Below are positions 2,592 to 27,230 of a stretch of DNA of 45,340 bases, piece after piece. Positions within the stretch are counted from its first letter, which is position 1. Every line of letters begins with the position of its first letter. The translations under genes and the position numbers were made by a program. The stretch lies in the IMG/VR virus record IMGVR_UViG_2537561977_000033; one strand, written 5' to 3'. Below the pieces are notes generated by a model. The model did not search any database. It saw only the letters and a program-made list of their open reading frames with translations, and had not been told where the DNA came from. Origin of the DNA: a virus. Its lineage: Duplodnaviria > Heunggongvirae > Uroviricota > Caudoviricetes.

Positions 2592-2867
2592 GTGGCTTCC
2601 ATTTCCATCAGATGTCCTTCCTGCTCCGCTACTGAAGGCGTGGTGCGTAACGGCAAAAGCACTGCCGGACATCAGCGCTATCTCTGCTCTCATTGCCGTA
2701 AAACATGGCAACTACAGTTCACTTACACCGCCTCTCAGCCCGGTACGCACCAGAAAATCATTGATATGGCCATGAATGGCGTCGGATGTCGCGCCAGTGC
2801 ACGCATTATGGGCGTTGGCCTCAACACGGTTTTACGTCACTTAAAAAACTCAGGCCGCAGTCGGTAA
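2592..2867 (+). CDS. insA: IS1 InsA, 91 aa
   Basis: [43 protein letters not shown]... matches IS1 InsA from memory. Confidence 0.85.
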
Positions 2868-3289
2868 CCTCGCGCATACAACCGGGCAGTGATGTGATTG
2901 TCTGCGCTGAAATGGACGAACAGTGGGGCTACGTCGGTGCTAAATCACGTCAGCGCTGGCTGTTTTACGCGTATGACAGGATACGGAGGACGGTTGTGGC
3001 GCACGTCTTCGGTGAACGCACTCTGGCCACACTGGAGCGTCTTCTGAGCCTGCTGTCGGCCTTTGAGGTCGTGGTATGGATGACGGATGGCTGGCCGCTG
3101 TATGAATCACGCCTGAAGGGAAAGCTGCACGTTATCAGCAAGCGTTACACTCAGCGCATTGAGCGACATAATCTGAATCTGAGACAACATCTGGCAAGGC
3201 TGGGACGGAAGTCACTGTCGTTCTCAAAATCGGTGGAGCTGCATGACAAGGTCATCGGGCATTATCTGAACATAAAACACTATCAGTAA
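2786..3289 (+). CDS. insB: IS1 InsB reading frame, 167 aa (normally made as InsAB' by frameshifting)
   Basis: [16 protein letters not shown]...[13 protein letters not shown]... matches IS1 InsB; overlaps insA in another frame. Confidence 0.85.
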
Positions 3290-3395
3290 GTTGGAGTCAT
3301 TACCAACGTGTACATACAAATATGCACAAAAATAATCATAATTATTTTCTGAGATGCATTATGATATGAACACCAATTTCGTATAGAGTCTCACT

Positions 3396-4082: not shown

Positions 4083-4658
4083 CTACGGCAGTGCTGGCCA
4101 TTCAATATCCTGTGCAGTTGACGTATCAACACGGTTCAGCAATACCCGATACTTTTTCCATGCTTCCAGCAACGAGATTTCTTCCTCCGTTGCAATTTCC
4201 AGATCTGCAGCATCCTGAAGCGGCGCAATATGCTCACTGGCTACCTGCATCAGGTTGTTTTTTGTTTCTTCCGCCTCCCGGATCCGGAACAGTTTTTCTG
4301 CTTCCGTATCCTTCACCCAGGCTGTGCCGTTCCACTTCTGAAACTCCCCTTCCGGCGATAACCAGGTAACATTTTCCGGTAACGGACCGAGTTCAGAAAT
4401 AAATAACGCGTCGCCGGAAGCCACGTCATAAACCGTTTTACCCCGATGATCTTCAACGAGATGCCACGATGACTCATCACTGTTGAAAACAGCCACGAAG
4501 CCAGCCGGAATATCTGGCGGTGCAATATCGGTACTGTTTGCTGGCAGACCTGTATGAGGCGGAATATATGCATCACCTTCACCAATAAATTCATTAGTTC
4601 CGGCCAGCAGATTATAAATTTTTATGGTCCGTGGTTGTTCACTCATTCTGAATGCCAT
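4083..4658 (-). CDS. tfa: tail fiber assembly protein, 191 aa
   Basis: Immediately downstream of the fiber gene with start/stop overlap at 4656-4660; sequence matches remembered TfaQ/lambda Tfa. Confidence 0.8.
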
Positions 4659-6313
4659 TATGCAAGCCTCACAATATAGTTAAATGCGATGTTTTTGACG
4701 GTGTTTTCCGCGTTACCAGCAGCGTTAACGGTGATGGTGTGTCCATGTGAACCAATCGCAACGGAGTGCGTATGAGCACCAATACCGACAGTATGTGCAT
4801 GTGCGCCTGCGCTTGCAGCAGTACCGGACAGCGAGTGGGTATGAGCACCATCTGATGATGTCTTCCCTGCATTACGAGTCTGGCCACTACCGCTTGTTGT
4901 GCTCATAATCCCCGCGCTTAGATTTGAAATCGCGGTATAACCATTAGGGAAAATGCTCGTGTTCGTGCCACCAAATGCACCGGAACTCTTGTGTTGGTGC
5001 GCACCGGCACTATTTGCGGTCCCGCTAATACTATGGGTATGCGCCCCGGTGTTATTCGTGGATTTGGTTCCGTAATCAAACGACGATGTGGTTTTCGTCC
5101 CCAAATCCGTACTGGATGCGCTGGCGCTGTGGGTGTGCGATTTAATGCCGTCCTGTTCCTGAGTTAATACGGCCCGACCACTGGCGGGCTTGCCCTTAAT
5201 CGTCCAGCCACGCATATCAGGGATCACGCCTGACGGATAAGCAACTGCAAGTTTCGGGTATGCAGATTTGTCAAAAGTCTGCCCCTGCATCAGGGCATAA
5301 CCAGACGGAACGGTATCTGATGGCCACGGGATTGGTGCACCGACTGGATAAAACTCTGCAGGAGGATGAGCCGAGGTGTAAAGCTGCGCCCACGGCGACC
5401 AGTTTGCGTCGGTCGTATCCCGTCGTGAACGAATAAATGCCGGAGCATGAGCACCGCTTGTACCACTCCAGCCGATGAGTAACTCACCTTCGCCAACGGC
5501 TGTCATCCCTTTCAGGTGAATGATATTTCCATACGCTGTTGGATATCCGTTGTTATACACCTCGTATAACTCAAGACCTGCTGCCCCCTGCGTATTGTCT
5601 GTCAGCGCGGTTACCCGACCTTTTGAAGCCAGATTAACTGATGATACTGCTGTTCCACCTGACGGTAACGCCCCGATCTCTGATGCCGTTGGCTTATTTC
5701 TGGAGTTATAGTCCCTTCGCCAGCCAGGTGAATAATCTGTTCCGTGATTAATATAGGTAAACTGGGCGTTAGTTGTTCCACCACCAGTGGAGGTGGTCGG
5801 TGTGGTAATGCGGATCGTCATCGCTGACTTTATCCCCATTACTTCAATGACAGCTCCGGCGAGATGAATATTACCGCAGTCAGTATCAGTAATGATTTTA
5901 TTATTGCCATAAGACCAGGACCCCTTGCACATCCAGTAGGGATGGTTAAATGCTCCCTGAGAATCCAGCCACTCGATAAACTGTGCAGTCGTCCAGTTTC
6001 CTGTTGTTGTGCTTACTGACCCACCGAAGGCACGGCAGGCACCAATATTTTTCGTAAAGGTATCTTTGCCAGGGATATCCGCACCGTTCTGATCTTTCTG
6101 CAGACGTTTCTCAGCATTGTCATTGGCTGCTTTTACTGCCTTTGGCGTTGCCGCCAGCGTTTCAGACGTGCTGTTGGTCGCGCTGCTTAACTGGATTATC
6201 CCTTTGTGCTGTCGTTGCATCCTGTGCGGTGTATTTCCCGTTAGCCAGGTCATACGCGGCCTTAACGGCTTTTGGCGTTGCCGCCTGTGACTCGGAAGTG
6301 CTGTTGGTCGCAC
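4658..6313 (-). CDS. stf: side tail fiber, C-terminal distal part; frame differs from the upstream stf part, real translation start unclear
   Basis: C-terminus ...[40 protein letters not shown] matches lambda Stf; carries the conserved box [26 protein letters not shown] near its N-terminus; first ~35 codons look like out-of-frame read-through. Confidence 0.7.
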
Positions 6314-6335
6314 TACTGAGCTGGACTATCCCCTT
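6141..6335. repeat. two direct copies (~64 bp each, ~130 bp apart) of the conserved tail-fiber recombination box
   Basis: 6141-6204 and 6271-6335 align with about 15 mismatches and one 1-nt length difference; both encode ...[11 protein letters not shown]...ATPKAVKAA in different frames. Confidence 0.8.
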
Positions 6336-7736
6336 TTTCGTCGTGCTCGCATCCTCAAGCGCCACGGCGGATGCAATATCCTCTGCCCGTTTTGCCGCTG
6401 TCTCGGCGCGCGTTGCCGCGGTTTCTGCCGTACTTTTGCTCTGTGCTGCCGCTGTCGCACTGCCAGCAGCCTCTGTCGCCTTCGTGGATGCTGTCGTGGC
6501 GCTGCCCTTCGCTGCTGACGCCTGTCTGGTCGCCTCATCTTTTGAAGCTGACGCCGATGATGCCGATGAAGCCGCCGAACTGGCGGACGATGCGGCAGCC
6601 GTTTTTGAGGATTCTGCGCTGGTTTCCGACGCTTTCGCGTTCGTCTCGGATGTCTTCGCTGCGGAAGCAGACCTCGCTGCTGCACTGGCCTGTTCAGTGG
6701 CTTCGCCAGCCTTCGTTGTGGCTGTTGAAGCAGACGAGGCGGCACTTTCTGCCGACTTTCCGGCAGCGGTGGCACTGGCTGAGGCCTGCCCGGCACTTGT
6801 TGACGCGGTACTGGCAGATGATGCAGCCGCTGTTTTTGAGCCTGCCGCAGCTGAGGCACTCTGTCCCGCTGCCGTTTCAGAAGACCTGGCGTTCGTCTCG
6901 GACGTCTTTGCCGCCTTCGCGGAATTTCCTGCCGCCGTTGCCGAGGAAGCGGCACTACTGGCGCTTGATGATGCGTTCGTTTCTGATGATTTCGCTGCCT
7001 CTTTTGAGGCCGCCGCATCCCGGGCTGAGGTGGCAGCTTCTGACGCCTTTGTGGTCGCTGCGGATGCAGAAGTGGCTGCAGATTTTTGTGACGCTGCCGC
7101 ATTCGTTTCTGACGTTTTCGCCGCACCGGCACTGGTAGCTGCCGCGCTTTTTGAGGACTCTGCAGCGGCAGCACTTTTTGATGCTTCAGTAGCCTTTGTT
7201 GATGCCGTTCCTGCGCTGGAAGACGCTGACTGAGCCGACGTCGCGGCCTGCCCGGCTGATGTGCTGGCTGCACGTGCTGAGCCTGCAGCATCAGTCGCAT
7301 GGGTTGCCGCCTCACGGGCTGATGTGCCGGCATCGCCGGCTGACTTCTTCGCGGCTGCCGTGTTCTGTGCCACCGCGGACGCGTTACGCGCCACCTCTTC
7401 CACCATCAGCTCAAAACGGCGCAGTGCCTCCGGACGGGCATCATCCTCCGTCATGGCACCGAGAAAATCATTCAGCGTACCGGGTCGGGAATCTTCATAC
7501 ACGGTGATGGTCCCGGCATGTGACGGCGGGAATCCTTCCACCAACAGAATAACGCTGTACTGACCGTACTCAACGTCCATACTGTAACGCCCGGCTTCAT
7601 CCGGATTTTCTGAGGCCAGCGTGTTCACCACCACCGTGGTGCTGTTACGTTTTGCTTTCAGCTGGATTGTGCAGTTCTGTACCGGTTTTCCTGTGCCGTC
7701 TTTCAGTACACCTGAAATCTTTACTGCCATATTCAC
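6162..7736 (-). CDS. stf: side tail fiber, N-terminal proximal part, 524 aa, Ala/Ser-rich repeats
   Basis: N-terminus [37 protein letters not shown]... matches lambda Stf; ends shortly after the conserved box, inside the second copy of the repeat. Confidence 0.75.
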
Positions 7737-7794: not shown

Positions 7795-8394
7795 TCAGAA
7801 TTTATAACCGACACCCACGATGAAACTGTTGGTACGCCAGTCACCGCTGCCGGAGCCTTCATAAGCGACGTCAACGGCCACGGATTCGGTCGGGTTAAAC
7901 TGCACGCCAGCTCCCCACGCCAGAGACGTGTTGCTGTGGCGACCGTCATCACTTCCGGTCAGCACATCGTGCGTTTTCCCCTTGTTGTCAGTTACGCGGA
8001 TATAATCTCCGGAGAAAGTCGAAACACGGCTGTAAGCCATACCCGCCATCGCATACGCGCTGAACCATTCATTCACGCGCACAGACGGCCCCGCCATCAC
8101 GCTGAACCAGCGGTTACGCACGGAATCTTCATGCCAGCGGGTATCGCTGTAATGCGTTTTTTGCTCATCTTCAGCGTTGGCATAACTGAATGACGTAATC
8201 AGCCCCAGCGTGTCCGTAAACTCATAACGGTATTTCACGTTAATCCCGTTCAGATTATCGCTGCCGGGAGCGTTCGTACGGGCATGAAGATACCCTGCGC
8301 TCAGTGTGGCCTGCTGCTCAGACGCCCATGCAGGCGCACCGAATACGGCCAGACAAATGGCTGCGGACAAAATGGCGGCATAAAGTTTACGCAT
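7795..8394 (-). CDS. lom: Lom outer-membrane protein (Ail/Lom family), 199 aa, with signal peptide
   Basis: [24 protein letters not shown]... ends in a beta-barrel motif ...GVGYKF; lambda Lom position between J and stf. Confidence 0.8.
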
Positions 8395-8418
8395 AATTAC
8401 CTCTCGCTTTTCTGCAAT

Positions 8419-8441
8419 AAAAAGGCGCCATTTCTGGCGCC
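8419..8441 (-). terminator. candidate rho-independent terminator after J
   Basis: Minus strand GGCGCCAGAAATGGCGCC followed by TTTTT. Confidence 0.4.
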
Positions 8442-8460
8442 CGTATATGGGTTATAAAAT

Positions 8461-11400
8461 TCAGCTGATACTGATGCCTGCGGTGGCTTTCTTCATCACC
8501 ACAACCAGCAAATCGCTGATACTTGCTGTGGGATACCAGTCATTTACCAGCCATGCTGACACCGAAAACTCCAGCGTCATGTGGCCGTGACCAGCTGGCA
8601 TATCAATAACACCACTGTAAATCAGCGTATTATCCAGCGCGGTACGGTTATAAATTTCAGCACCATTTTTCTTCACTATCAGGCGGCATGACGAATAAAT
8701 ATCGTTATTCTCCCGCTCATGTTTAGCGCCGCAGAATGCCACCGCTGGAATAACAATTTGCCTGTCAAAAGGCTGATCGTCATAAATCCTGACGGTAATG
8801 GTCCCTGATGGCCACCGCTCCGGTGCCCGGGAGTCCCGCGGGAAAGCCTTACCCACTGTTTTGACAATATCGCCTTCAATCTGATTGGCTGACAGTTTCC
8901 CCTTAATCTGACAGTTCTCATTAATCGTGACGTTGTTGAGCGTCCCGGAGTTCGCGTTCACGTTACCGCTGATATCGGCATTTTTCGCCGTCAGCCGTCC
9001 GCCAGGTGTCAGGGAAAATGCCGGAGGATTACCGCCGCTGGTAATGGTGGGGGCCGTCAGGCGTTTCAGGAACACGTCGTTCATGAATATCTGATCGCCC
9101 TGACCAACAAACATCGGTTTTGTGTTGCCATTCGCAGGATTAACCATCGCAATCCTGTCCGCCGCCAGCAGCACCTGACTCTGCATGCCGTCAGGGGTGT
9201 TCTCAATACCGGCACCAATACCCGCGATATAAAGGCGTCCGTCCTGCATCTGCTGCAGCTTCACAGCCCACATGCTGTTCAGGTTATTATTTGTATCAAC
9301 CTGAACCTTCTGTATCTGCTGAATTGCCGCACTCTGGTCTTCCAGTTTCTTATTGACGGTCTGCGTGATTTCATTGCTGACATCCGTAATGGACGTCCTG
9401 ATTTCAGCCAGGTCAGGCGCAAGCTGACCGTTATCAATCTGCGTCCACAGCTCCTGAGCCAGATGGGTTTTCCCTATCTCGCCTTTGAAAAAATCCAGAT
9501 AGCCGGATGCATCATCACTCGGCTGACCAACAGCCTCCACGAATGCCGATTTGCCAACGGTGTTCACACTGCGAACGTAAAAATAATAATCATGGCCCGG
9601 CCTGATATTGATACTGGCGGCTATCCAGTACAGCGCCGTGCCAAGATAGCGGGCTGTGGTTTCAACCTGCCTGATATCGGTAATCCGCTTTTCCGAGAAC
9701 CAGAACTCAAACTGTACCGTCGGGTCATAAACGGCAAGATGCGGCGTGGCGGTTATCTGAAAATAGCCCGGCGTCAGCTCAATCCGCGACGGCGCTGCCG
9801 GTGCGGCAATCCGGAACGATACCGACGCCGGATCGCCCTGCTGCCCCCACGCATTTACTGCCCGGACTGTCAGCCTGTAGTTCCCCAGCGCCAGTTGTGT
9901 GAAGCGGTAAGTGGTTTCCGTCGTCCGGGCCGTGCTGACCAGCCGCTCACTGCCGTCATCCGCTGTTACGGTCAGACGGAGCAGGAAGCTCACGCCCTTC
10001 ACCACCTTCGGCGTGTCCCAGCGCGCCAGCACCTGATATTCCCCGCTGTCTGCGGTGACTTCGGCAGTCAGGTGCTGCACCGCTGGCGGCGTGACACCAT
10101 TCACCGTGCCGCTCTGGTCGCCGTCAAAGTGCGCCCCGTTATCCACGATGGCCTCTTTTTCCGGTACATGCTGCACGGCGGTGATGGCATACGTGCCGTC
10201 ATCGTTCTCACGGATACTCACGCAGCGGAACAGGCGCTGGCGCAGCGTCGGCAGCTTCAGCCCCCATACGCTGTATCCGGCAACGCCGTCAGGAACACGG
10301 CTCACTTTTACCTTCACGCCGTCGGTGACGGACTGGACCTCCACGCTGACCGGATTGCCTCTTCCGTCAACCAGGCTTATCAGCGTGGTACCGGAGGATG
10401 GCAGCGTGATTTCACGGTCGAGCGTCAGCGTCCGGGTCTGGCTGTTCACCGCCAGCACGCGCCCGCCGGTACTGATACCGGCATAGTCATCATCGCAGAT
10501 TTCAATGACATCGCCCGGTACATGGCGAAGCCCTTCAGCACCCACGCTGAAGTCCACGGTCTGCGTTTCCAGCAGTTCCGTTTTAATCAGCCACAGCCCG
10601 GCGCGGTGTGCCTGCCCCCGGCTGGTACAGCCAAAGGCATCCATCTTCGTGACGTTACGACCGTAACGGGCAATGGCCTGCGTATCTTCAACAAGCTCTG
10701 TCGCCGTCTCCCAGCCGTTGTTCGGGTCAATCCAGTTCACCTCAACGGCATTATGGCGGTCCTTCAGGGCGCTGAAGCTGTAGCGGAACGGCGCGCCATC
10801 ATCCGGCATCACCACATTACTGCGGTTATAGGTCCACGCCTTATCCGACGGTCGGTCCTGCACGAACGTCAGCGTCTGCCCGTTCCATACCGGCATACAG
10901 CGCATCGCCGAGCAGAAATCACTGAGCACATCCCACGCCTTACGCTGTGTGGTCAGGTACGCATTACAGGTGATGCGCGGCTCCGTGCCGCCAAAGCCGT
11001 CCGGCACTGACTGGTCGCAGTACTGGCCGATGACATACAGCGCCCATTTATCCACATCCGTCGCACCAAGACGTTTCCCCATGCCGTAGCGCGGATGGGT
11101 CAGCATATCCCACAGACACCAGGCCATGTTGTTGCTGTATGCCGGTTTAAACGTTCCGTCCCAGATACCGCTGTATTGCCGCGTCTGCGGGTTATAGTTC
11201 GACGGCACCTGCAGAATGCGCCCGCGAAGATGATAATTACGACTCACCTGCTGGCTGCCGAACTGCTCCGAGTCCACCTGCACGCCGACCAGTGCCGTGT
11301 TCGGGTAGCCCTGTTTCACATCGATGATTTCGGTGTATGACGACCAGAGCGTTTTGTTCTGCAGCTGGTCTGTGGTGCTGTCCGGCGTCATCCTGCGCAT

Positions 11401-11940
11401 CCGGATACTGAACGGGCGCGGCGGCAGGTTATCCACCACCACAGAGGCCAGGTACTGCGAGGTGGTTTTGCCTTTAATGGTGATGTCTTTTTCCGTCACC
11501 CAGCCACCGTTACGTTGTATCTGAACCAGCAGGCGGACTTCCGATGGATTCCTGTCCCCCTTTGAGGTGGTTTCCACCAGTGCCTGCACACCGAAGGTAA
11601 AGCGCAGACGGTCGATGTTTGCAGACGTGATGGTCCGGGTGATCGGCGTGTCGTATTTCACTTCCGTACCGAGCACCGTCTCGGATCCGGAGGATTCAAA
11701 TCCCTCCGGCGGTGTCTGCTCCTGCTCACCGGCCCGGAACACCACCGTGACACCGGATATGTTGGTATTCCCCTCAGTGTCCAGCACCGGCGTACTGTTC
11801 AGCAGCACGCTTTTTAAGCCATCCACCGGACCTTCAACCGGCCCTTCGCTGATGGCATCGATCACACTCAGCAACTGCGTGGACTTCAGGTTGTCCTTCG
11901 CTTCGCGCGGGGTATGCCCCTTACTGCTGCCTTTACCCAT
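8461..11940 (-). CDS. J: tail tip / host specificity protein J, 1159 aa, with a C-terminal domain unlike lambda J
   Basis: First ~900 aa near-identical to remembered lambda J ([24 protein letters not shown]...); last ~250 aa diverge. Confidence 0.9.
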
Positions 11941-11999
11941 TCCTCACGCTCCATAAACGACAAAACCGCCCGCAGGCGGTTTCACATAAACATTTTGCA

Positions 12000-12671
12000 T
12001 CAGCGACCAATCACCACAACCTGACCACCGTCCCCTTCGTCTGCCGTGCTGATCTCCTGAGAAACCACACGTGACCCCACGCGCATTTCACCGTACAGAA
12101 CGGGCAGAACATTGCCCTGGGCAACCATGTTATCCAGTGAGGAGAAATAGGTGTTTTGTTTGCCGTTATCCGTTGTCTGTGTACGGGGAGTTCTGGTTTT
12201 CGGTGCCAGCATCTGCGCCACACCACCGAGCACCATACTGGCACCGAGAGAAAACAGGATGCCGGTCATACCACCGGCCCCAATGGCTGCCCCCCATGCT
12301 GCAAGGGTGGCTCCGGCGGTAAAGAATGATCCGGCAATGGCGGCAGCTCCCAGGACAATCTGGAATACGCCCCCTGACTTGGCTCCGGCGACTCTGGGAA
12401 CAATATGAATCACAGCGCCGTCAGGCAGAGTCTCATGTAACTGCGCCGTTAACCCGGACGTGCTGACGTCCCGCCCGGCAATCCGTACCTGATACCAGCC
12501 GTCGCTCAGTTTCTGACGAAACGCCGGGAGCTGTGTGGCCAGTGCGCGGATGGCTTCAGCCCCCGTTTTCACACGAAGGTCGATGCGGCGACCAAATCGT
12601 TGTAAATCCCCGTAAAGGCAGATGCGCGCCATGCCCGGTGACGCCAGAGGGAGTGTGTGCGTCGCTGCCAT
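12000..12671 (-). CDS. I: tail assembly protein I, 223 aa
   Basis: MAATHTLPLASPGMARICLYGDLQRFGRRIDLRV... matches lambda I. Confidence 0.85.
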   Translation of the reverse strand: MAATHTLPLASPGMARICLYGDLQRFGRRIDLRVKTGAEAIRALATQLPAFRQKLSDGWYQVRIAGRDVSTSGLTAQLHETLPDGAVIHIVPRVAGAKSGGVFQIVLGAAAIAGSFFTAGATLAAWGAAIGAGGMTGILFSLGASMVLGGVAQMLAPKTRTPRTQTTDNGKQNTYFSSLDNMVAQGNVLPVLYGEMRVGSRVVSQEISTADEGDGGQVVVIGR

Positions 12672-13312
12672 TTGTCGGTATACCTCTCTCGTTTGCTCAG
12701 TTGTTCAGGAATATGGTGCAGCAGCTCGCCATCACCACAGTAAATGGCGGCATGATTCGGCACCGATGAACCAAAACAGCACAGCAGCACATCGCCCGGT
12801 TGTGCTGATGACAACGGCACCTGATACAGCCCTGTGGCCTCCAGATTATCCAGATAGAGATTCTGACCGTGACGCCACCAGTCATCCTCGCGATGAAAAT
12901 CCGGCATCTCAATCCCCGCCAGATGATAAGCATCCCGGAACAGCGTGTAACAGTCCGTCACCCCGTGTTCAAAGCGCCGCCCGGTAAGATGTGGCACACA
13001 GCGGAACTTGTGAATCGCCCCCCGGCAGACCAGCCACCACGGCAAATCACTCTGCACCTGCAGCCGCCGGTCAGCCTCACTCAGCCAGGGCAGACCACCG
13101 GGGTGGCTGTGGACCAGCGCCACAATCTCACCCTGCATTTCTGCCTGCAGCCAGTCCTCCGGCGACATCCGGAAATAATCCTCTGGCTCACCGGAGATAT
13201 TCACGCAGGGAAAATATCTTTCCCCCTCCGGCGTGCTTACCACGAAGCCGCACGACTCCGCTGGCGCACATCGCCGGGCGTGCGCCAGAATCGCTGATTC
13301 TGTCTGTGTCAT
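12569..13312 (-). CDS. K: tail assembly protein K (JAMM/MPN plus NlpC/P60-like), 247 aa; lambda annotation may start at an internal Met
   Basis: MTQTESAILAHARRCAPAESCGF...HSHPGGLPWLSEAD (HxH...S..D JAMM-like motif) matches lambda K; overlaps I as in lambda. Confidence 0.85.
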   Translation of the reverse strand: MTQTESAILAHARRCAPAESCGFVVSTPEGERYFPCVNISGEPEDYFRMSPEDWLQAEMQGEIVALVHSHPGGLPWLSEADRRLQVQSDLPWWLVCRGAIHKFRCVPHLTGRRFEHGVTDCYTLFRDAYHLAGIEMPDFHREDDWWRHGQNLYLDNLEATGLYQVPLSSAQPGDVLLCCFGSSVPNHAAIYCGDGELLHHIPEQLSKRERYTDKWQRRTHSLWRHRAWRASAFTGIYNDLVAASTFV

Positions 13313-13317
13313 GGGAT

Positions 13318-14015
13318 TTACTGCGAAAGTTTGTTAATGGAAAGGAAGCCGCCAAAGTTGCCGACGTTATTGCGGAACTTACAACCGCTCAGGCATTTGC
13401 TGCATTTATCCTTCGTGATATCGGACGTTGGCTGGTCATATTCATCCGCGACCGCCGGACCGTGATAACCGCACTCATCGCCGCGATAGGTCCAGGTGCA
13501 GGTGTTGGCCAGCATGATACGTCCCGGAAAAACAGCGCCATCCGTTTCCGTCGGCGTGGACAGTACAAAGGAGGCACTCACCGCGCTCAGTTCGCTGCAC
13601 TGCTCAATGCGCCAGCGGCTGATCACCTCCTGCTCCGGATCGGCATAACTGTTTCCGTTGACGAAGTTCACCGCATCCAGAAAACGGGCGTAAACCTTAC
13701 GCCGGACCACCGTTCCGCCGACCAGGCTCTGCATATCTTCCGCCATCCCGGTGACCATACCGTACAGGTTAGAAACCGTCAGCGTGGGGCGCGTACTGGT
13801 GCCTTTGCCATTCAGTTCAAAACCGCTCCCCTGAATGGGATACGGCTGATACTGTCGCCCCTGCCAGGTGACCGGCTCACCTTTTTCGTTCTGCTCATTA
13901 CAGAAAAATAACGTTCTCCACCGACCTCTGTCAGATCGATTTCCCAGAGCACCACGCTGGCCGACTGCTCCGCACGGGTGCATTCATTCAGTGTTTCCTG
14001 CCGGATATCCTGCAT
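13318..14015 (-). pseudogene. L: tail protein L with a -1 frameshift in a T-run
   Basis: N-terminal 37 aa (MQDIRQETLNECTRAEQSASVVLWEIDLTEVGGERYF) and the rest (FFCNEQNEKGEPVTWQ...KLSQ) sit in different frames; the junction is TATTTTTCTG on the coding strand, around 13904-13908. Confidence 0.75.
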
Positions 14016-14344
14016 CAGTTCACCACCTGTTTAAACTCTGCGCTGAACTCAACACGCAACATACTGACCTGCGACGACCATTTTGCGCAGATCACCTTTA
14101 TCTGCCTGTAACCATAAGGCGGCGTCCACAGAAAGGCCTTCCAGCCCCCGTGCTCAGCCAGAAACGACTCCAGCGCCGTGGCCTCCTCACGGGAGACAGA
14201 CAGCGTCACGCTGTACGTTTTCAGGTCAGCGTTCAGCCCGGCAGGCGCACGCTGGGAATAGCCATCACCAAAGCGCACCTCCCTGACGGAAGGAGCCGAT
14301 GTCACATCCATCCCGGGTTTCACTTTCCAGCGGAAGGTTTTCAT
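14015..14344 (-). CDS. M: tail protein M, 109 aa
   Basis: MKTFRWKVKPGMDV...RVEFSAEFKQVVN matches lambda M. Confidence 0.85.
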   Translation of the reverse strand: MKTFRWKVKPGMDVTSAPSVREVRFGDGYSQRAPAGLNADLKTYSVTLSVSREEATALESFLAEHGGWKAFLWTPPYGYRQIKVICAKWSSQVSMLRVEFSAEFKQVVN

Positions 14345-15159
14345 CGTCCACCTCCGGAGAACAGACCACCATCGCGCATCTGTGCCTGGATTTCATCACG
14401 GGCACCCTTGCGGGCCATGTCATACACCGCCTTCATCATCTGTGGACCTGGCAGACCATTCGTACCGTCGTTCTGAATCACCACGTTGTTGTTCTGCTCA
14501 AACCTGATACCCTCTGAACGCCGCATTTGCGCCGGACTTCCGGTGCCACCGACATAACCGCCGGTGGCATAGCCGCGCATCAGCCGGTAGAGATTTCCCA
14601 CGCCAATCCGGCTGGTTGCCTCCTTCGTGAAGACAAATTCACCACGGTGAACAATCCCCGCTGGCTCATATTTGCCGCCGGTTCCCGTAAATCCTCCGGT
14701 TGCAAAATGGAATTTCGCCGCAGCTGCCTGAATGGCTGTACCGCCTGACGCTGATGCGCCGCCACCAACAGCCCCGCCAATGGCGCTGCCAATACTCCCG
14801 ACAATCCCCACCATTGCCTGCTTAAGCAGAATTTCTGTCATCATGGACAGCACGGAACGGGTGAAGCTGCGCCAGTTCTGCTCACTGCTGGTCAGCATCG
14901 CTGCCATATTCTGCGCAATACCATCAAAGGTCTGCGTGGCTGCACTTTTAACCTGCAACATACTGTCCGTGGCACTCTCTTTCCACTCGCTCCAGCCGGA
15001 CCTGAGGCCTGCCATCCAGCTCCCGCGAAGCAGGTCTTCAGCCGCCCAGGTCTTTTTCTGCTCTGACATGACGTTATTCAGCGCCAGAGGATTATCGCCA
15101 TACTGTTCCTTCAGGCGCTGTTCCGTGGCTTCCCGTTCTGCCTGCCGGTCAGTCAGCCC
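14341..15159 (-). pseudogene. H: tape measure protein H, C-terminal ~270 codons only; 5' end removed at the IS boundary
   Basis: Open frame runs without stops from the IS left end at 15159 down to the stop at 14341; the supplied ORF (first Met at 15069) covers part of it. Lambda H is about 850 aa. Confidence 0.8.
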
Positions 15160-16453
15160 CTGAGGAATCCCCAGAAAACAAGACAGGCATAGTGAGATGT
15201 GATCTAATTGATTGTGCTAACAATTTCAAGGAGATCACCACTATGCCTGCACGTTCATTATGCCAAAATTTCCTTAACAACATACTGGCCCCTTTGCATC
15301 TTTACCGTCAAAAATCACTGATTGACGCAACTAATGCTGTAATAAATGGCGCTTCCCTCACACTTACCAGTATCGGGCGTCATTTAACCGGTACGGCATC
15401 AGTTAAAAACAAAATAAAGCGGGTGGATCGACTGTTGGGGAATCGACATTTGCAAAATGAGGTTTCCACCATTTTTCAGCGAATTACCCAAAAGATTACG
15501 CGGGGAATGTCTCGTGTTGTGATACTCATTGACTGGAGTGCTTATCATGCCTCTCGTTTTCAGCTTTTGCGGGCAAGCCTGGCATGTGACGGGCGTTCTT
15601 TACCGTTGATGAGTTGTGTCGTTCCATCATCACAGACAGCGAATGCAGATGTACATGAGCGTTTTCTGGAATCGCTTGCTGAGTGCTTTTCCCCCGGGAC
15701 TGATGTCATTGTTATTACAGATGCCGGTTTTCAGGGGCGATGGTTCCAACAGCTCCGCTCCCGTGGCTGGACCTATATTTGCCGGGTACTGGGCAATCAT
15801 TATTACAATGTTGGTAATGGCTGGGAAAAGGTGTCGGACTCAGGCACAAAAGCATCAACGACAGCAATTTATTTAGGTGAAGGCCTGCTGGGTCGAGATA
15901 AAAATGCACAACATGAAGGGCATTTTTATCTTTATAAAAGTAAGCCTAAAGGTCGTAGATTTAAACGCTCGAAGGAAAGAGCAACCAGACCATCGGTGAC
16001 GGCTAAAGCTCGTACTGCCGGGAAATCACCATGGTTTATTTTCACAAACAGTACTGAGTTCTCGCCAAAACAGGTAATGAAATTATACAGCCGTAGAATG
16101 CAAATTGAGCAAAATTTCAGGGATGAAAAAAATCCTCGCTGGGGATTTGGACTACGGTTTGGTGCCAGTCATTCATCCGGGCGGGTCACGGTATTGAGTC
16201 TGATCGCAACATTAGCCAGTATCATTATGTGGTTAAGCGGTTTCAGCCTGGAAAACAAAGGGATACATCATAAATATCAGGCAAATACAGTGAAGCACAG
16301 GCGAGTCATCTCGTTATTAAAACTGGCGGAGAATGTGATTCGACATTCTCCACTCATACTAAACACACTGTCACTTGACGCAGGGCTGAAAGTTCTACAG
16401 CAACGGTATACCAATATGATAATGGTTTACTAAATTTTCTGGGGATCCCTCAG
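15160..16453 (+). mobile_element. IS4-family (IS10-like) insertion sequence, ~1.29 kb, no flanking direct repeat
   Basis: Terminal inverted repeats CTGAGGAATCCCCAGAAAA (15160-15178) and TTTTCTGGGGATCCCTCAG (16435-16453) resemble IS10 ends (CTGA.GATCCCC); flanking 9-mers differ (AGTCAGCCC vs GGCAAATCC). Confidence 0.8.
15192..16433 (+). CDS. IS4-family DDE transposase, 413 aa, IS10 transposase-like
   Basis: Motifs KRVDRLLGNRHLQNE, YKSKPKGRRFKRS, YSRRMQIEQNFRDEK and HKYQANTVKHRRV parallel remembered IS10 transposase; partial identity only. Confidence 0.85.
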   Translation: MRCDLIDCANNFKEITTMPARSLCQNFLNNILAPLHLYRQKSLIDATNAVINGASLTLTSIGRHLTGTASVKNKIKRVDRLLGNRHLQNEVSTIFQRITQKITRGMSRVVILIDWSAYHASRFQLLRASLACDGRSLPLMSCVVPSSQTANADVHERFLESLAECFSPGTDVIVITDAGFQGRWFQQLRSRGWTYICRVLGNHYYNVGNGWEKVSDSGTKASTTAIYLGEGLLGRDKNAQHEGHFYLYKSKPKGRRFKRSKERATRPSVTAKARTAGKSPWFIFTNSTEFSPKQVMKLYSRRMQIEQNFRDEKNPRWGFGLRFGASHSSGRVTVLSLIATLASIIMWLSGFSLENKGIHHKYQANTVKHRRVISLLKLAENVIRHSPLILNTLSLDAGLKVLQQRYTNMIMVY

Positions 16454-16695
16454 GGCAAATCCCCCCGGTTAACTTTGATTCTGGCCTGCGGATTTTTGAC
16501 CGTGGCCCTTTTCAGCCTGGCCCTTTCCTTTACCAGTTTCCGGCGTACCTTTGTCTCACGGGCAACCTGTGACGCAGACTGCGATATCGCGGATGAAGCA
16601 ACGCGGTTAATGGCCATTGCGGCGGCACCGGGCACCGCCGTTTTGCTGATACGGCTGAGGTTTTCAACGGCCTGCTCAAGACCTTTTATGGCCAT
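16454..16695 (-). pseudogene. Z: tail protein Z, N-terminal ~80 codons, truncated at the IS
   Basis: MAIKGLEQAVENLSRISKTAVPGAAAMAINRVASS...KVNRGDLP matches the lambda Z N-terminus; the frame runs into the IS right end. Confidence 0.7.
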
Positions 16696-16706
16696 ACATC
16701 CCCCTT

Positions 16707-17060
16707 TCAGCGGCGACGGTTAACGGCAGGCGGTACGCCCCGTCCAAGCCAGAGATGACAACTTCCGCCATCATCCGGCGAAACCCGATCTACCCAGAAA
16801 TTTTCCTCACCGATGGTCAGCGTGTCTCCACGCCGCAGCTGCCGCACCTCATCAGTCCGGACAAACAGGGACGGGCTGGAGCCTTCAACGCGCACGCCCT
16901 GTCCGGCATAGCTGATATTTTCAGGGTCATCAAAAACACCACGTATCACCGCACCTGACTGCTCACCGGATGTCATGGTGGCTGACGTTCCCATGTACCC
17001 GCGTATCGTTTCATCGGCGCGGGCAATGGCAGCATCGAACAGGTTATCGAAATCAGCCAC
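16707..17060 (-). CDS. FII: head-tail joining protein FII, 117 aa
   Basis: MADFDNLFDAAIARADETIRGYMGTSA... essentially identical to lambda FII from memory. Confidence 0.85.
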   Translation of the reverse strand: MADFDNLFDAAIARADETIRGYMGTSATMTSGEQSGAVIRGVFDDPENISYAGQGVRVEGSSPSLFVRTDEVRQLRRGDTLTIGEENFWVDRVSPDDGGSCHLWLGRGVPPAVNRRR

Positions 17061-17071
17061 AGCGCCTCCCG

Positions 17072-17470
17072 TTATTGCATTCTGGCCAGGCCGCGCTCTG
17101 TCATTTCGGCTGCCACACCGGCAGAGACACGAAACGCCGTTCCCGGCAGCACAAATGCCACAGGTTCATCCCGCGTGGCGTGAAGTGCATCAGTATGCAG
17201 CTTCACCAGTGCCACGACCGTGACCAGTTCAGACGTATCCAGAATCACGGTATCCGGCTGCGCTGATCCCACCTCATTTTCATGTCCGGTCAGCACATTT
17301 TCCCGGCTGAGAGGGGTGTCCTGACCGGCAGTTTCATCCGTGTCATCAAGCTCCTCTTCCAGCTCTGCCACACGGAGCGCCAGTTCTTCTTTCGTCCCCG
17401 TCAGGCTGACATCACGGTTCAGTTGTTCACCCAGCGAGCGGAGACGGGCAATCAGTTCATCTTTCGTCAT
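17072..17470 (-). CDS. FI: head protein FI, 132 aa from the internal Met MTKDELIARL...
   Basis: ORF 17072-17509 contains the lambda FI sequence starting at MTKDEL. Confidence 0.8.
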   Translation of the reverse strand: MTKDELIARLRSLGEQLNRDVSLTGTKEELALRVAELEEELDDTDETAGQDTPLSRENVLTGHENEVGSAQPDTVILDTSELVTVVALVKLHTDALHATRDEPVAFVLPGTAFRVSAGVAAEMTERGLARMQ

Positions 17471-17511
17471 GGACTCCTCCACAGAGAGAAAATGGCCCCG
17501 AAGGGCCATGA

Positions 17512-18537
17512 TTACGCCAGTTGAACGGCCACGAACTCATCAGGATCAGCCAGCAGCATCAGCGGTGCTGACTGAATCATGGTGAACTCTCGCGCCGGAT
17601 CGCCGGATGTCTTCCAGTTTTTCGGATAACGGGGAGACGCATTAATACCCTCACTCAATGCATCCGCATCCTGAATACAGCCATAGGTGCGCAGACCGCG
17701 TGCATGAGTGTTACCCAGCACCATCGTGTTGTCCGGCAGGAAGTTCTTTTTGACGCCGTTTTCCACGTACTGTCCGGAATACACGACGATGGCCACATCG
17801 CCATACATCCCCTTATAGGACACCGCTTTACCCAGGTCTTTCACCGCTGTCTCCAGCTCGGAATGAGAGCCACGACGGGTATCCAGCTTCTCCCTGACGG
17901 CTTTGAAGGAACGGAACAGCGCCCAGCCTTTCGGATCGAACACGATGATATTCACCACACCGCTGGCGTTCAGCGCGTAGGCTTCGATATCGTCGGTCGG
18001 GTCATACGTGGACTTGTCACGCTTGCTCCACTCCGTGCCGCCGGACTGCGTGATGTTATTCTCCTCACTGCGGCCCATATCCACCTCAACCGGATCGAAG
18101 GCTTCACCGGTCATGGTGTATTTGCCCTTAAGCACGGCAGAAACTGCCTGCATCTCTTCGACCTGAGCAATGGCCAGCTCTTCGTCACGCATGTTCTGCA
18201 TGATGATGCGACGGCGGCGGTAAGCTGGGTCCGCCAGATTCTGCGGATCTTCATCCGGCAGGCGACGCAGGGTCATCTGCGGATTCACTTCATGCTTCGG
18301 CTTGACATATCCCGGCGTAAATTCAGAGGTGGAGCCGCCACGGGAACGGATAACCTCACCGGAAACAATCGGCGAAACGTACAGCGCCATGTTTACCAGT
18401 CCCGGAATTTGTGAGAGATAGACTTTCTCCGTGGTGAAGGGATAGCTCTCACGGAAAAAGAGACGCAGAAACAGCGGATCAAACTTAAATTTCTGCTCAT
18501 TTGCCGCCAGCAGCTGGGCGGTTGTGTATATCGACAT
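17512..18537 (-). CDS. E: major capsid protein E, 341 aa
   Basis: MSIYTTAQLLAANEQKFKFDPLFLRLFFRESYPF... matches lambda gpE. Confidence 0.9.
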   Translation of the reverse strand: MSIYTTAQLLAANEQKFKFDPLFLRLFFRESYPFTTEKVYLSQIPGLVNMALYVSPIVSGEVIRSRGGSTSEFTPGYVKPKHEVNPQMTLRRLPDEDPQNLADPAYRRRRIIMQNMRDEELAIAQVEEMQAVSAVLKGKYTMTGEAFDPVEVDMGRSEENNITQSGGTEWSKRDKSTYDPTDDIEAYALNASGVVNIIVFDPKGWALFRSFKAVREKLDTRRGSHSELETAVKDLGKAVSYKGMYGDVAIVVYSGQYVENGVKKNFLPDNTMVLGNTHARGLRTYGCIQDADALSEGINASPRYPKNWKTSGDPAREFTMIQSAPLMLLADPDEFVAVQLA

Positions 18538-18591
18538 AAAAAATCCCGTAAAAAAAGCCGCACAGGCGGCCTTTAGTGATGAAGGGTAAAG

Positions 18592-18924
18592 TTAAACGAT
18601 GCTGATTGCCGTTCCGGCAAACGCGGTCCGTTTTTTCGTCTCGTCGCTGGCAGCCTCCGGCCAGAGCACATCCTCATAACGGAACGTGCCGGACTTGTAG
18701 AACGTCAGTGTGGTGCTGGTCTGGTCAGCAGCAACTGCAAGAATGCCAACGGCAGCACCGTCGGTGGTGCCATCCCACGCAACCAGCTTACGGGTGGAGG
18801 TGTCCAGCATCAGCGGGGTCATTGCAGGCGCTTTCGCACTCAATCCGCCGGGCGCGGTTGCGGTATGAGCCGGGTCACTGTTGCCCAGCGGCTGGTAATG
18901 GGTAAAGGTTTCTTTGCTCGTCAT
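18592..18924 (-). CDS. D: head decoration protein D, 110 aa
   Basis: [40 protein letters not shown]... matches lambda gpD; the ORF has 2 extra N-terminal codons. Confidence 0.85.
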
Positions 18925-18933
18925 AAACATCCC

Positions 18934-20233
18934 TTACACTGGTGTGTTCAGCAAATCGTTAACGGCATCAGATGCCGGGTTACCTGCAGCCAGCGGTGCC
19001 GGTGCCCCCTGCATCAGACGATCCAGCGCAGTGTCACTGCGCGCCTGTGCACTCTGTGGTGCTGCGGCCAGAATGCGGCGGGCCGTTTCCACGGTCATAC
19101 CGGGGGTTTCTGCCAGCACGCGGGCCTGTTCTTCGCGTCCGTGAGCCTCCTCACAGTTGAGGATCCCCATAATGCGGCTGTTTTCTGCCGCAACCGCAGC
19201 GGTGATCTGCGCGTTCACGTCCGGCTGCGCCGCGCTGGCGTTTTCGCCCTCCGTCGCTGGCACCACGTCAGTAACGTCAGCCTGCGAAGCAGTGGCTGAA
19301 ACAGTTGTTGATTGAGTCTCTTTGGTCATTCGCCCTCCTGAGAGACGGGATTTACGTGCATCCAGTGCATCACGCATAACGGTGATCGCATCGGTGCTGT
19401 TGACAAGTTCATCAGCCAGTCCGGCATCAATGGCCTCCTGACCGCTGTACACTGCAGCCTCGGTATCCAGCACAGCCTGCACGGACAGGCCGGTATATGC
19501 CGACACCTTCTGCGCAAACATCCGGCGGGTTGCGTCCATCCGGGACTGCAGTGTCTCCCGGACGTCATCCGGAAGATGGCTGTAGGGGTTGCCATCCACC
19601 TTATGGCTGCCGCTGTAAATCAGCGTGATTTCCACACCCTGTTTCTCCAGCGCAGCACCGTAATTACTGTGAGCCATCATGACGCCGATGGAGCCTGTCC
19701 GGGCGGTCTGCGTGACCAGACGCCGGGAGGCGGCACTGGCAAGCAACTGACCTGCACTGCAGTTCATGTCGTTGGCAAGCGCCCATACCGGTTTTATGTC
19801 ACGCACACGGGCGATGATGTCAGCGCAGTCAAATGCCCCCGCCACCATCCCGCCGGGCGTGTCCATATCGAGCAGAATGCCGTCCACCATCGGATCGCTG
19901 GCAGCCTGTTGCAGACGGGCGATAATGCCGTTGTAACCGGTCATCCCCGAGTACGGCTGCAGCGCCCGCGTCCGGCTGACCAGCGTGCCGGACACCGGCA
20001 GCACGGCGATGCCGTTCATGACCTGATAACTGCGGGCCTGTCGTGGTCCGTCATCATCACCGGATAATGCCAGCGTCGCGAGTGCCTCCTGGGCAGTCAG
20101 GCTGTCGCCGGACACCGCATCCGTCAGGCGGCTGATCCCAAGCTGGCCTGCAAGCGCACAAAAGAAAACCCGCGCATAGGCGGGTTCAAGCATCAGCGGC
20201 TCATTAAAGGCCATGCTGGCAATATGCGGGAGA

Positions 20234-20253
<20 letters not shown>
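18934..20253 (-). CDS. C: head protease/scaffold region protein C, 439 aa, GTG start (Nu3 scaffold is nested in its 3' part in lambda)
   Basis: Lambda C sequence starts at (V)TAELRNLPHIASMAFNEPLML; GTG at 20251-20253 preceded by AGGAGGAG; the supplied ORF extends upstream into the B overlap. Confidence 0.85.
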
Positions 20254-23934
<3,681 letters not shown>

Positions 23935-23960
<26 letters not shown>

Positions 23961-24480
23961 TCAGCAACCCCGGTATCAGTTCATCCAGCGCGGCTGCTTT
24001 GTTCATGGCTTTGATGATATCCCATTTCAGGAAATCAACATGTCGGTTTTCCAGTTCCGGAAAACGCCGCTGCACCGACAGGGGGATCCCGTCGAGAATA
24101 CTGGCAATTTCACCTGCGATCCGCGACAGCACGAAAGTACAGAATGCGGTTTCCACCACTTCAGCGGAGTCTCTGGCATTTTTCAGCTCCTGTGCGTCGG
24201 CCTGCGCACGCGTAAGTCGATGGCGTTCGTACTCAATAGTCCCTGGCTGGAGATCTGTCTCGCTGGCCTGCCGCAGTTCTTCAACTTCCCGGCGCAGCTT
24301 TTCGTTCTCAATTTCAGCATCCCTTTCGGCATACCATCTTATAACGGCGGCAGAGTCATAAAGCACCTCATTACCCTTGCCACCGCCTCGCAGAACGGGC
24401 ATTCCCTGTTCCTGCCAGTTCTGAATGGTACGGATACTCGCACCGAAAATGTCAGCCAGCTGCTTTTTGTTGACTTCCAT
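23935..24480 (-). CDS. Nu1: terminase small subunit Nu1, 181 aa
   Basis: MEVNKKQLADIFGASIRTIQNWQEQGMPVLRGGGKGNEVLYD... matches lambda Nu1. Confidence 0.9.
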
Positions 24481-24700
24481 TGCTCATTCCACGGACAAAA
24501 ACAGAGAAAGGAAACGACAGAGGCCAAAAAGCTCGCTTTCAGCACCTGTCGTTTCCTTTCTTTTCAGGGGGTATTTTAAATAAAAACATTAAGTTACGAC
24601 GAAGAAGAACGGAAACACCTTAAACCGGAAAATTTTCATAAATAGCGAAAACCCGCGAGGTCGCCGCCCCGTAACCTGTCGGATCGCCGGAAAGGACCCG
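24481..24700 (-). other. cos packaging site (cosB, cosN, cosQ) in circularly permuted prophage context
   Basis: 24658-24669 AGGTCGCCGCCC is the reverse complement of the lambda cohesive end GGGCGGCGACCT; the segment up to Nu1 mirrors the lambda left end and 24670-24700 the lambda right end (...CCGACAGGTTACG). Confidence 0.8.
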
Positions 24701-26340: not shown

Positions 26341-26656
26341 ACTACCACTGCTGGTTCAGAGTTAAAAAAACTATGATTTTTTCATGATGTTACCGTAGTA
26401 TGTGAGTATCCATCGAATAGACACCAAGCAAAAAAGCTCCCGAAGGAGCCTTCATTTTCACTTTTTTAAATCCAACGACAGACGGCTGGCATTTAAGTAT
26501 TGTGAAATATTATCAAATGTAATCATCATTGATTTACAAAAGATACATTTTGCCCCGAAAGGATTCATGTCAGAAACATCAAAAGATGATGTTCTATACT
26601 GGGAACCATGACAACACGGGCATCTAAAGTGAATATGGTTTGTAATATTGTCTACC

Positions 26657-26869
26657 TCAAAGCGCCACTACATGAACAGCGGCAGGACCTTTAGGTCCGT
26701 TCTCAATACCAAATTCAACTTCCTGATTCTCAGTTAATGTTTTGAAATCGTTGCTCTGAATTGCTGAGAAATGGACAAACACATCTTTGCTGCCATCTTT
26801 CGGCGTGATGAAACCAAAACCTTTTTCAGGGTTAAACCATTTCACTAAACCAGTCATTTTGTTAGACAT
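26657..26869 (-). CDS. cspI: cold-shock protein (CspA family), 70 aa
   Basis: [38 protein letters not shown]... with RNP1/RNP2 motifs; matches my memory of CspI. Confidence 0.8.
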
Positions 26870-27230
26870 AATTATTACCTTTTGAAGAAATTAGCCCTTG
26901 GGCAGAATGGTCCGAAAAAAATATCAGAGAGAAAAACCAACAAGGAAATCTCAAGAGGTACAAATAATAAAATTATAACAATGACTGCTTCAGATAAATT
27001 TGTAACAAACCAGAACACCATTAACGCATGATTAACCACCCATAGCAAGGATTACTTTTGTAAAGAAAAACACAGCAATGAAAGAATAGCTTTATTTATT
27101 AATAAAACGTGTCATTCTGATTAAGACCTTTTATCTTACCCTTAAGATTTCAGGAATTTTGGCTCATGGAAGAGTCCTTTTTATTCAAATTTTACATTCC
27201 GCGATGTAAATGTTCCGATTTAATATTACC

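Follow-up and report, generated by a model that had tools for sequence, protein, structure and literature searches.

Qin (Kim) of E. coli K-12 has lost its entire head-tail block, and the related prophage of ATCC 8739 keeps the block with a frameshifted Z. The cryptic prophage Qin, its full-length relatives, and the prophage studied here share an integration site at which, as described for Qin-type prophages, ydfJ is cut to 427 aa, with rspB beside int (PMC6379469); they also have in common the accessory genes dicA/B/C, DicF, relBE, hokD, ydfU, cspB/F/I, nohA, pinQ, and tfaQ. Deletions that leave an intact insertion sequence (IS) at the joint and no target duplication have been found in the E. 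coli long-term evolution experiment, and where duplications are missing, the explanation put forward is that one IS copy recombined with another or that an adjacent deletion took place (PMC11708052). IS-mediated deletion is a known phenomenon and an ordinary step in prophage decay, not a new kind of element. The case studied here has the same intact IS at the joint and likewise no duplication; it differs in that the evolution-experiment deletions involved another IS family, and in that it comes from a natural isolate, where the route is not directly observable.

The window, by which we mean the whole stretch of 45,340 nucleotides that was analyzed, comes from one E. coli gut isolate (draft assembly GCA_000188815.2, contig ADUP01000059.1). 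It starts with a 427-aa ydfJ remnant (99.8% identical to that of ATCC 8739), ends with int, and is collinear at 99.7% with the ATCC 8739 locus annotated dicA/B/C, relBE, hokD, ydfU, and rspB; the DicF RNA is present as well. Integration at the 5' end of ydfJ, an int gene adjoining rspB, and the Qin accessory genes identify this 45-kb element as a Qin-type lambdoid prophage and not lambda itself. The original prediction had taken lambda as its frame. The morphogenesis genes follow the lambda order Nu1-A-W-B-C-D-E-FI-FII-Z...H-M-L-K-I-J with DNA identities of 98.3% (heads) and 95.6% (tail tip); the early, lysis, and immunity regions are unlike those of lambda.

Extent of the loss and its junctions

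Alignments to lambda and to ATCC 8739, together with a complete 1,294-bp IS, bear out the proposal that an IS4-family element replaces the region from the 3' end of Z through U, V, G, and T to the 5' end of H. Both blastn and junction alignments place window position 15160 at lambda 12284 (position 15340 of the ATCC 8739 locus) and window position 16453 at lambda 8219 (position 19405), with flanks collinear with the reference loci on either side, so that lambda coordinates 8220-12283 give way to the IS; in ATCC 8739 the corresponding segment is NC_010468 2294461-2298526. The shortfall relative to either reference is 4,064 bp, rising to 4,066 bp when the ambiguous junction bases (one per junction) are assigned to the IS, in agreement with the roughly 4 kb first estimated.

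On the minus strand, the truncated Z gene (16450..16695) comprises codons 1-81 at 16453-16695, 100% identical to lambda Z 1-81 and matching positions 1-79 of the 190 in the Minor_tail_Z profile, followed by a TGA (16450-16452) supplied by the IS end; the Z frame does, as predicted, run into the right inverted repeat. The H remnant (14341..15159, minus strand) begins at the left inverted repeat and retains the last 272 tape-measure codons, close to the 270 expected: tblastn aligns H residues 581-853 (581/582-853 at 15162/15159-14344, about 90% protein identity to lambda H), and the Tape_meas_lam_C profile matches at 4e-21. Its first in-frame start is an ATG at 15069, giving a 242-aa ORF. For annotation, this ORF and the 81-aa Z are pseudogene fragments, and the element between them is ISEc60. 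Searches by tblastn with the lambda and ATCC 8739 proteins detect no U, V, G, or T in the whole window at E <= 1e-5, as had been claimed; the lambda-type tail module (Z, U, V, G/GT, H) is represented by Z 1-81 and H 582-853 only. Base-level alignments leave at most one base of microhomology at each junction, and the IS is exact at both of its ends. Given that the IS ends are complete and that the element is 100% identical to active-looking copies, the deletion did not eat into the IS.

Without the terminator U, the tube protein V, the chaperones G/GT, and a full-length tape measure H, none of which could be made from this locus, the prophage would be expected to assemble no tails and to yield no infectious particles. 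Full-length versions of Nu1, A, W, B, C, D, E, FI, and FII are encoded, with protein identities of 97-99%, and cosN (GGGCGGCGACCT) is exact and intact at 24669/24670. The head and packaging module is complete in sequence and putatively functional, in keeping with the earlier picture of a phage deprived of its tail tube with head, terminase, and cos seemingly intact.

Identity of the insertion sequence

The element (15160..16453, plus strand) is a complete ISEc60, its ends having been fixed by comparison of 25 copies. From end to end it shows 100% identity to copies that bear the annotation "IS4-like element ISEc60 family transposase" in E. coli CFSAN029787, FDAARGOS_943/944, RMDEC332/364, and VL46, and to nine others in the same genome. 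The 19-bp left inverted repeat (IRL, CTGAGGAATCCCCAGAAAA, 15160..15178, plus strand) adjoins the H remnant, and the right one (IRR, CTGAGGGATCCCCAGAAAA on the minus strand, 16435..16453) adjoins the Z remnant. IRR is the reverse complement of IRL except for one mismatch, which creates a GATC; shuffled windows yielded 0 inverted-repeat matches of this kind. The intact transposase ORF (15243..16433, plus strand) lies antisense to the phage late operon and encodes 396 aa, or 413 aa if read from a GTG at 15192. The 396-aa protein is the ISEc60 transposase WP_001111632.1 and matches Pfam DDE_Tnp_1 (PF01609, 1.8e-20) and the IS4-family model NF033591 of NCBIfam (8.5e-108; 360.5 bits, where the cut-off is 152). 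Inverted repeats, transposase, and the element itself are thus those of ISEc60, the RefSeq/PGAP name. The prophage copy differs in having no target duplication, whereas 16 of the 25 copies examined have one of 10 bp; its membership stands regardless, because a duplication belongs to the insertion event and not to the element.

The element had been called IS10-like, which holds at the level of the IS4 family: IS10 belongs to the same DDE_Tnp_1 superfamily and is of similar size, 1,329 bp, with similar termini (CTGA.GAATCCCC), and the ISEc60 5' leader, whose layout allows a hairpin to mask the start of the transposase, recalls the fold-back inhibition of IS10. In the strict sense the element is not IS10. 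The transposase is 36.0% identical to that of IS10A (residues 1-367, 93% of the length, E = 4e-64), compared with 51.6% for ISSfl1; the duplication is 9 bp for IS10 and 10 bp in all 16 informative ISEc60 copies; and Rfam gives no RNA-OUT match in 15100-16520 at E <= 5, a search that a diverged antisense RNA could escape. We also considered a 1,298-bp element that would include the flanking CC/GG and generate a 6-bp duplication, and rejected it: homology to lambda and ATCC 8739 reaches 15160 on one side and starts at 16453 on the other, and other copies show CTC, TTC, or TCC beside IRL. Among species-representative genomes the sole match to the IS end came from Pectobacterium sp. B2J-2, whose element resembles ISEc60 over no more than about 106 nt at the left end (82% identity); we therefore regard it as a different IS and left its flanks out.

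Flanking sequences and routes to the deletion

In the isolate's genome at least 10 identical ISEc60 copies are present, seven with perfect 10-bp duplications and three without, and 4 of 10 further copies in two related assemblies also lack a duplication. Sister isolates of the lineage include GCA_031665325.1 and GCA_031665585.1, which have at least one ISEc60 site in common with it. Both copies examined in FDAARGOS_944 are without one and have lost neighboring genes (the narZ 3' end; the traL-traP interval). At most of these duplication-less copies each flank resembles a full target. ISEc60 seems to insert in one orientation at the centre of GC-rich palindromes, with a 10-bp duplication of the form G-G-R-N4-C-Y-C, a target preference that is a small but reusable descriptive datum; a stricter rule drawn from the first 10 duplications, RRRNNNNCCC, proved too strict once ten more copies were added.

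The 9-mers on either side of the prophage copy had been reported to differ, and they do, as given; the relevant unit is 10 bp, and the 10-mers CAGTCAGCCC (H side, 15150..15159, plus strand) and GGCAAATCCC (Z side, 16454..16463, plus strand) also differ, neither being repeated across the IS. The Z-side 10-mer comes close to the consensus target and sits within a near-palindrome rich in GC. On the H side only the CCC half beside IRL fits, and among the 16 duplications a C at position 1 occurs in none and an A at position 2 in one. The last bases of the left flank are CCC and the first of the right flank are GG, the pattern of ordinary ISEc60 junctions (CCC|IRL, IRR|GG); by our own estimate, chance would give these half-sites roughly 1 time in 64 and 1 in 16, respectively.

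The locus is very probably a genuine IS-associated deletion of some kind, specific to this strain, in a decaying Qin-type prophage. An intact IS at the gap and no target duplication agree with the proposed insertion followed by adjacent deletion or by recombination between two copies, and we retain both routes; the final sequence is the same under either. We favor homologous recombination between two copies as the specific route and put its chances at about even. ISEc60 would have entered Z at GGCAAATCCC, a typical target, and a second copy in direct orientation would have entered H about 4 kb away; recombination between the identical 1.3-kb copies would then have left one copy and removed Z codons 82-192, U, V, G, T, and H codons 1-581. 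We infer the order of these events as well as the second copy. The outcome would be a single intact IS whose flanks come from two separate insertion sites, which is why no duplication would be present. The full-target-like flanks at most duplication-less copies fit recombination between two normal insertions, as this route predicts. Such a second copy would leave a junction of IRR to CAGTCAGCCC-CCGGTTTTT, or of TTGATTAC-GGCAAATCCC to IRL. It counts against the two-copy route that no intermediate, with ISEc60 in Z or H and a duplication, turned up among viral and metagenome contigs, in 5,426 complete E. coli genomes, or by exact-protein look-ups. The poor match of CAGTCAGCCC to a full target is likewise unexpected for an ordinary insertion in H, and two independent insertions in the same orientation 4 kb apart are a priori unlikely unless the element hops locally.

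A transposase-promoted adjacent deletion, in which a single ISEc60 in Z stays in place while its left end is linked to another position in H, with loss of the intervening 4 kb in one event, would need only one insertion, and a near-consensus Z flank beside an H flank that fits only in its CCC half would suit an atypical or constrained strand transfer nearby. Adjacent deletion is a recognized cause of IS copies without duplications and, within the IS4 family, is reported for IS10 (Roberts et al. 1991, as cited in PMC11708052). IS4-family members of the IS10/IS50 type are cut-and-paste, however, and the title cited there calls the IS10 deletions low frequency; for replicative IS elements the process is described more often. 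Nor does this route really account for the weak H-side site, because classical models also need a full staggered target where the new joint forms, and flanks that look like two full targets at most other duplication-less copies fit recombination better. We consider adjacent deletion a possible but doubtful origin. That ISEc60, as a cut-and-paste element, makes such transposase-driven one-ended deletions frequently is unlikely; the idea arises because the H site is half-matched and insertion is in one orientation at palindrome centres, and about a third of the copies in the genomes sampled lack a duplication. If true, it would make ISEc60 a natural model of a process that is on record for IS10 at low frequency only.

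The junctions themselves speak against a deletion independent of transposase and of IS homology, in which the IS was captured at a break or one flank of a simple insertion was lost illegitimately: both termini are exact, each flank shows its normal half-site, and microhomology does not exceed one base per junction. Duplication-less insertions at deletion centres have been proposed for IS5 and IS481 (PMC11708052), and the poor H-side target would be in keeping with such an origin, yet we regard it as very improbable here.

The sequence comes from a draft assembly, which also counts against the two-copy route. An assembler could have collapsed an IS-4 kb-IS arrangement, with insertions in both Z and H and U-V-G-T between them, into one IS; the reads show the element to be a repeat, and all 10 copies are base-identical, as consensus gap-filling would make them. 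All 10 nevertheless lie inside contigs of 21-731 kb, seven with perfect duplications, so repeat placement looks generally reliable. Paired-end distances (1.3 kb vs 6.7 kb) would be expected to expose a collapse, and we found no reciprocal flank partners, the signature of an inversion, among the duplication-less copies. An artefact of this kind is very unlikely, and Z and H would be disrupted even so.

Occurrence of the junction and state of the prophage

The Z-IS junction was found in the source assembly and in one sequencing run (SRR040460) only, and in 0 of 5,426 complete E. coli genomes. A Logan unitig of SRR040460 carries the same junction and breaks off after 28 nt of IS sequence, as would be anticipated when an element is repeated. 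A degenerate pattern for both junctions, validated by its 2 matches in the window, had 0 matches in viral and metagenome contigs. The 81-aa Z at first appeared widespread, in about 30 blocks of other samples, a reading we rejected: outside the source assembly and SRR040460, those contigs simply end at codon 81 and have the intact lambda continuation (...CCCGT). The apparent spread is a selection artefact of looking up an exact sequence. None of the best 25 matches to the tail-tip region from complete E. coli genomes exceeds 99% (the best reaches 98.4%); five records attain at least 99% over shorter matches. With no near-identical relative among these 25 the ancestral state of the lineage is not directly readable.

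One decay step can be dated to a single lineage, one more example of IS elements eroding prophages with little import beyond correct annotation. The ATCC 8739 relative retains its head-tail block, whereas here Z'-U-V-G-T-'H has been lost to ISEc60; heads and tail tip are retained, and heads and packaging machinery are still encoded by a 45-kb Qin-type prophage that, judging from its gene content, cannot produce tailed particles. The prophage was already damaged elsewhere; further lesions comprise an IS1, an ISNCY-family IS, and frameshifts in L and stf.

The Z-H junctions and the missing segment

The phage genes of the window lie on the - strand, and ISEc60, an IS4-family insertion sequence, stands between what is left of Z and H. 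Gene FII (16707-17060, -) is upstream of a Z remnant (16450-16695, -) whose 81 residues are 100% identical to residues 1-81 of lambda Z and end in a TGA stop, the right end of the IS lying at 16453; below 15159, at its left end, the C-terminal 272 residues of a tape-measure protein like that of lambda lie on the - strand (Tape_meas_lam_C; H 581-853 by tblastn), followed by M, L, K, I, and J. This H remnant holds a 242-aa ORF from its first ATG, with no evident role. By blastn, window 9444-15160 corresponds to lambda 18002-12284 (95.6%) and window 16453-24669 to lambda 8219-1 (98.3%). Window 15160 is thus lambda (NC_001416) 12284 and position 15340 of the Qin-type locus of ATCC 8739 (L019), an intact relative, and window 16453 is lambda 8219 and L019 19405; by either reference, then, 4,064 bases are missing, or 4,066 if the base that the IS end and the phage have in common at each junction is counted as IS. 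The lost segment comprises Z codons 82-192, U, V, G, T, and H codons 1-581, for a net length change of about -2.77 kb, and tblastn with lambda and ATCC 8739 queries returned no match to U, V, G, or T in the whole window. The comparison with lambda thus bears out the original prediction that Z runs into one IS end, that the last ~270 codons of H begin at the other, and that U, V, G, and T, roughly 4 kb, are missing.

The further claim that the prophage cannot make a tail tube agrees with what is known of lambda: a tube should not be buildable when U, V, G/GT, and full-length H are lacking and Z has lost its C-terminal two thirds, so no infectious particle would form. As predicted, head, terminase, and cos look intact in sequence, Nu1, A, W, B, C, D, E, FI, and FII being full length at 97-99% protein identity and cosN exact.

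Looking up the 81-aa Z remnant as an exact sequence gave contig ADUP01000059.1 of the source genome (GCA_000188815.2, a draft assembly of one E. coli gut isolate), 100% identical to window 6450-26695, and also a Logan unitig of run SRR040460 that has the Z-IS junction and ends 28 nt into the IS. The remaining contigs returned were rejected as junction carriers; they stop at codon 81 because their sequence runs out there, and their leftover bases are those of intact lambda. Neither junction was found in 5,426 complete E. coli genomes (no place covering at least 80% of 14900-16700), in viral contigs, or in metagenome contigs, and the H-remnant ORF is on record in the source assembly only, which argues that the deletion is, as far as these collections show, private to one strain.

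The ISEc60 element

The two ends of ISEc60 (15160-16453, 1,294 bp) are 19-bp inverted repeats, CTGAGGAATCCCCAGAAAA and CTGAGGGATCCCCAGAAAA, that mismatch at one position (0 expected by chance). Its single ORF (15243-16433, +), antisense to the phage late operon, encodes a 396-aa transposase with hits to Pfam DDE_Tnp_1 (1.8e-20) and, at 8.5e-108 and 360 bits (cut-off 152), to the NCBIfam model NF033591, 'IS4 family transposase'. Several complete E. coli genomes have copies with the annotation 'IS4-like element ISEc60 family transposase' that equal the window element at 100% from end to end, and in two of these genomes there are 36-38 copies. The transposase of the element shares 51.6% identity with that of ISSfl1 and only 36%, over 93% of its length, with that of IS10A, and an Rfam search of the region gave no match to RNA-OUT; the description 'IS10-like' is therefore correct at family level only.

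Fold-back inhibition in IS10 offers a precedent for the leader of ISEc60 (15182-15251, +), which forms a long predicted hairpin (-37.9 kcal/mol, z = -5.6 against shuffles) in which 15184-15194 pairs with the Shine-Dalgarno sequence and the transposase ATG at 15243. In transcripts reading through from outside, the transposase would probably be untranslatable in the same way. GATC sites occur at 15201, at 15233, and at 16444 in the right inverted repeat (IRR); the left repeat (IRL) has none, and this is the sole difference between the two.

Target sites and the route to the deletion

We compared 25 ISEc60 copies, ten from the source genome, five from complete genomes, and ten from two further assemblies, which set the ends as CTGAGG...CCTCAG. 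Perfect 10-bp target duplications flank 16 of the 25, and the length is 10 bp in 16/16 informative copies; the approximate consensus is G-G-R-N4-C-Y-C, usually centred in a GC-rich palindrome, with the C-rich side adjoining IRL in every case. The left flank of the window copy is CAGTCAGCCC and its right flank GGCAAATCCC, with no duplication of any length; the flanks thus differ as predicted, and the 9-bp length assumed for them becomes 10 bp. Nine of the 25 copies lack a duplication; such copies also occur in ISEc60-rich genomes other than the source genome, where they adjoin missing genes. Two of the nine form a tandem IS-10 bp-IS dimer (L041/L042).

Complete IS ends, flanks collinear in reference phages, and the missing duplication together read as the signature of an IS-mediated deletion, which supports the proposed insertion followed by adjacent deletion or by recombination between two copies. 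Published analyses put missing duplications down to these same two causes (PMC11708052), and cite IS10 as promoting adjacent deletion at low frequency. The route we favour, at about an even chance, is that an ISEc60 copy in Z would have recombined with a direct copy in H, because the flanks of most duplication-less copies resemble two complete targets and because a cut-and-paste transposase need then do nothing unusual. Two independent insertions 4 kb apart are a priori unlikely, and the H-side 10-mer matches the target only in the half adjoining IRL; both points favour the main rival, in which a first insertion in Z would have led to an adjacent deletion promoted by the transposase, a route we regard as possible but rather doubtful. 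The two routes leave the same end sequence, so the sequence cannot choose between them. Collapse of an IS-4 kb-IS arrangement by the draft assembler is improbable, since all ten base-identical copies of the source genome lie inside large contigs, mostly with perfect duplications (seven have one, three do not). Capture at a break, or illegitimate deletion, is the least likely reading and a very remote one: each junction keeps the half-site usual beside that IS end, and both IS termini are uneroded. The observation is thus confirmed and its interpretation supported, with the IS name, duplication length, and prophage identity refined; a catalogued IS, IS-mediated deletion, and cryptic-prophage decay are already well known.

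A second prophage of the same strain (L029, ADUP01000036.1), with HK97-type portal, protease, and capsid genes, carries ISEc60 between protease and capsid with a perfect duplication, GGGAAATCCC. One duplication-less copy in the source genome (L031) has the 10-mer AGGATCGCCC as its right flank, and another, in GCA_031665325.1 (L045), has it as its left flank, which suggests a common ancestral insertion rearranged differently in two related lineages. An element whose terminal 29 nt equal the ISEc60 IRL is present at seven or more contig ends (L021-L028) of Pectobacterium sp. B2J-2; sharing only ~106 nt at 82% overall, it was set aside as a different but related IS, and its flanks, CCC-N4-GG, reverse the ISEc60 site arrangement.

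The Qin prophage and its other lesions

The window is a whole prophage, from a 427-aa ydfJ remnant at its start to a tyrosine integrase at its end that adjoins rspB in collinear genomes, and its early half shares 99.7% identity with a locus in which dicA/dicB/dicC, relBE, hokD, ydfU, ydfT (Q), cspB/F/I, and nohA are annotated. By sequence, then, the lambda-type prophage originally described keeps its lambda morphogenesis gene order and is Qin, which reportedly integrates at the ydfJ 5' end, removing 28 codons, and has reported sizes of 11 to 97 kb in different strains (PMC6379469). Rfam matches above gathering score are the DicF sRNA (40534-40585, +), two cspA-type thermoregulator leaders of the Qin cold-shock genes (26630-27014 and 29522-29914, both -), and the IS009 sRNA inside tfaQ (4117-4315, -).

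An IS1 (2537-3304, 768 bp; InsA/InsB ORFs, NF033558 at 3.5e-43) separates ydfK from pinQ; its 8-bp duplication is AACGTGTA, and the site is empty in ATCC 8739. An ISNCY-family transposase ORF (35368-36708, -; 446 aa, NF033594 at 1.2e-139, annotated ISEsa1-like in relatives) occupies the same position in the replication/early region of many Qin-type prophages, and this lesion is therefore older than the ISEc60 event. Tail gene L is split (13812-14015 and 13318-13983, -) by a one-base deletion near 13911, in a T run that is T5 here and T6 in lambda and ATCC 8739; the split may reflect genuine decay, or else an error of homopolymer sequencing in the draft. The side tail fibre gene, stf (4658-7736, -), changes frame near 6201-6208, giving overlapping 524-aa and 551-aa ORFs where ATCC 8739 has a single 1,007-aa ORF and recalling the stf frameshift of laboratory lambda. 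The otherwise intact ATCC 8739 locus has a frameshift annotated in its own gene Z (L019 19069-19645), so decay of the Qin tail module proceeds independently from strain to strain.
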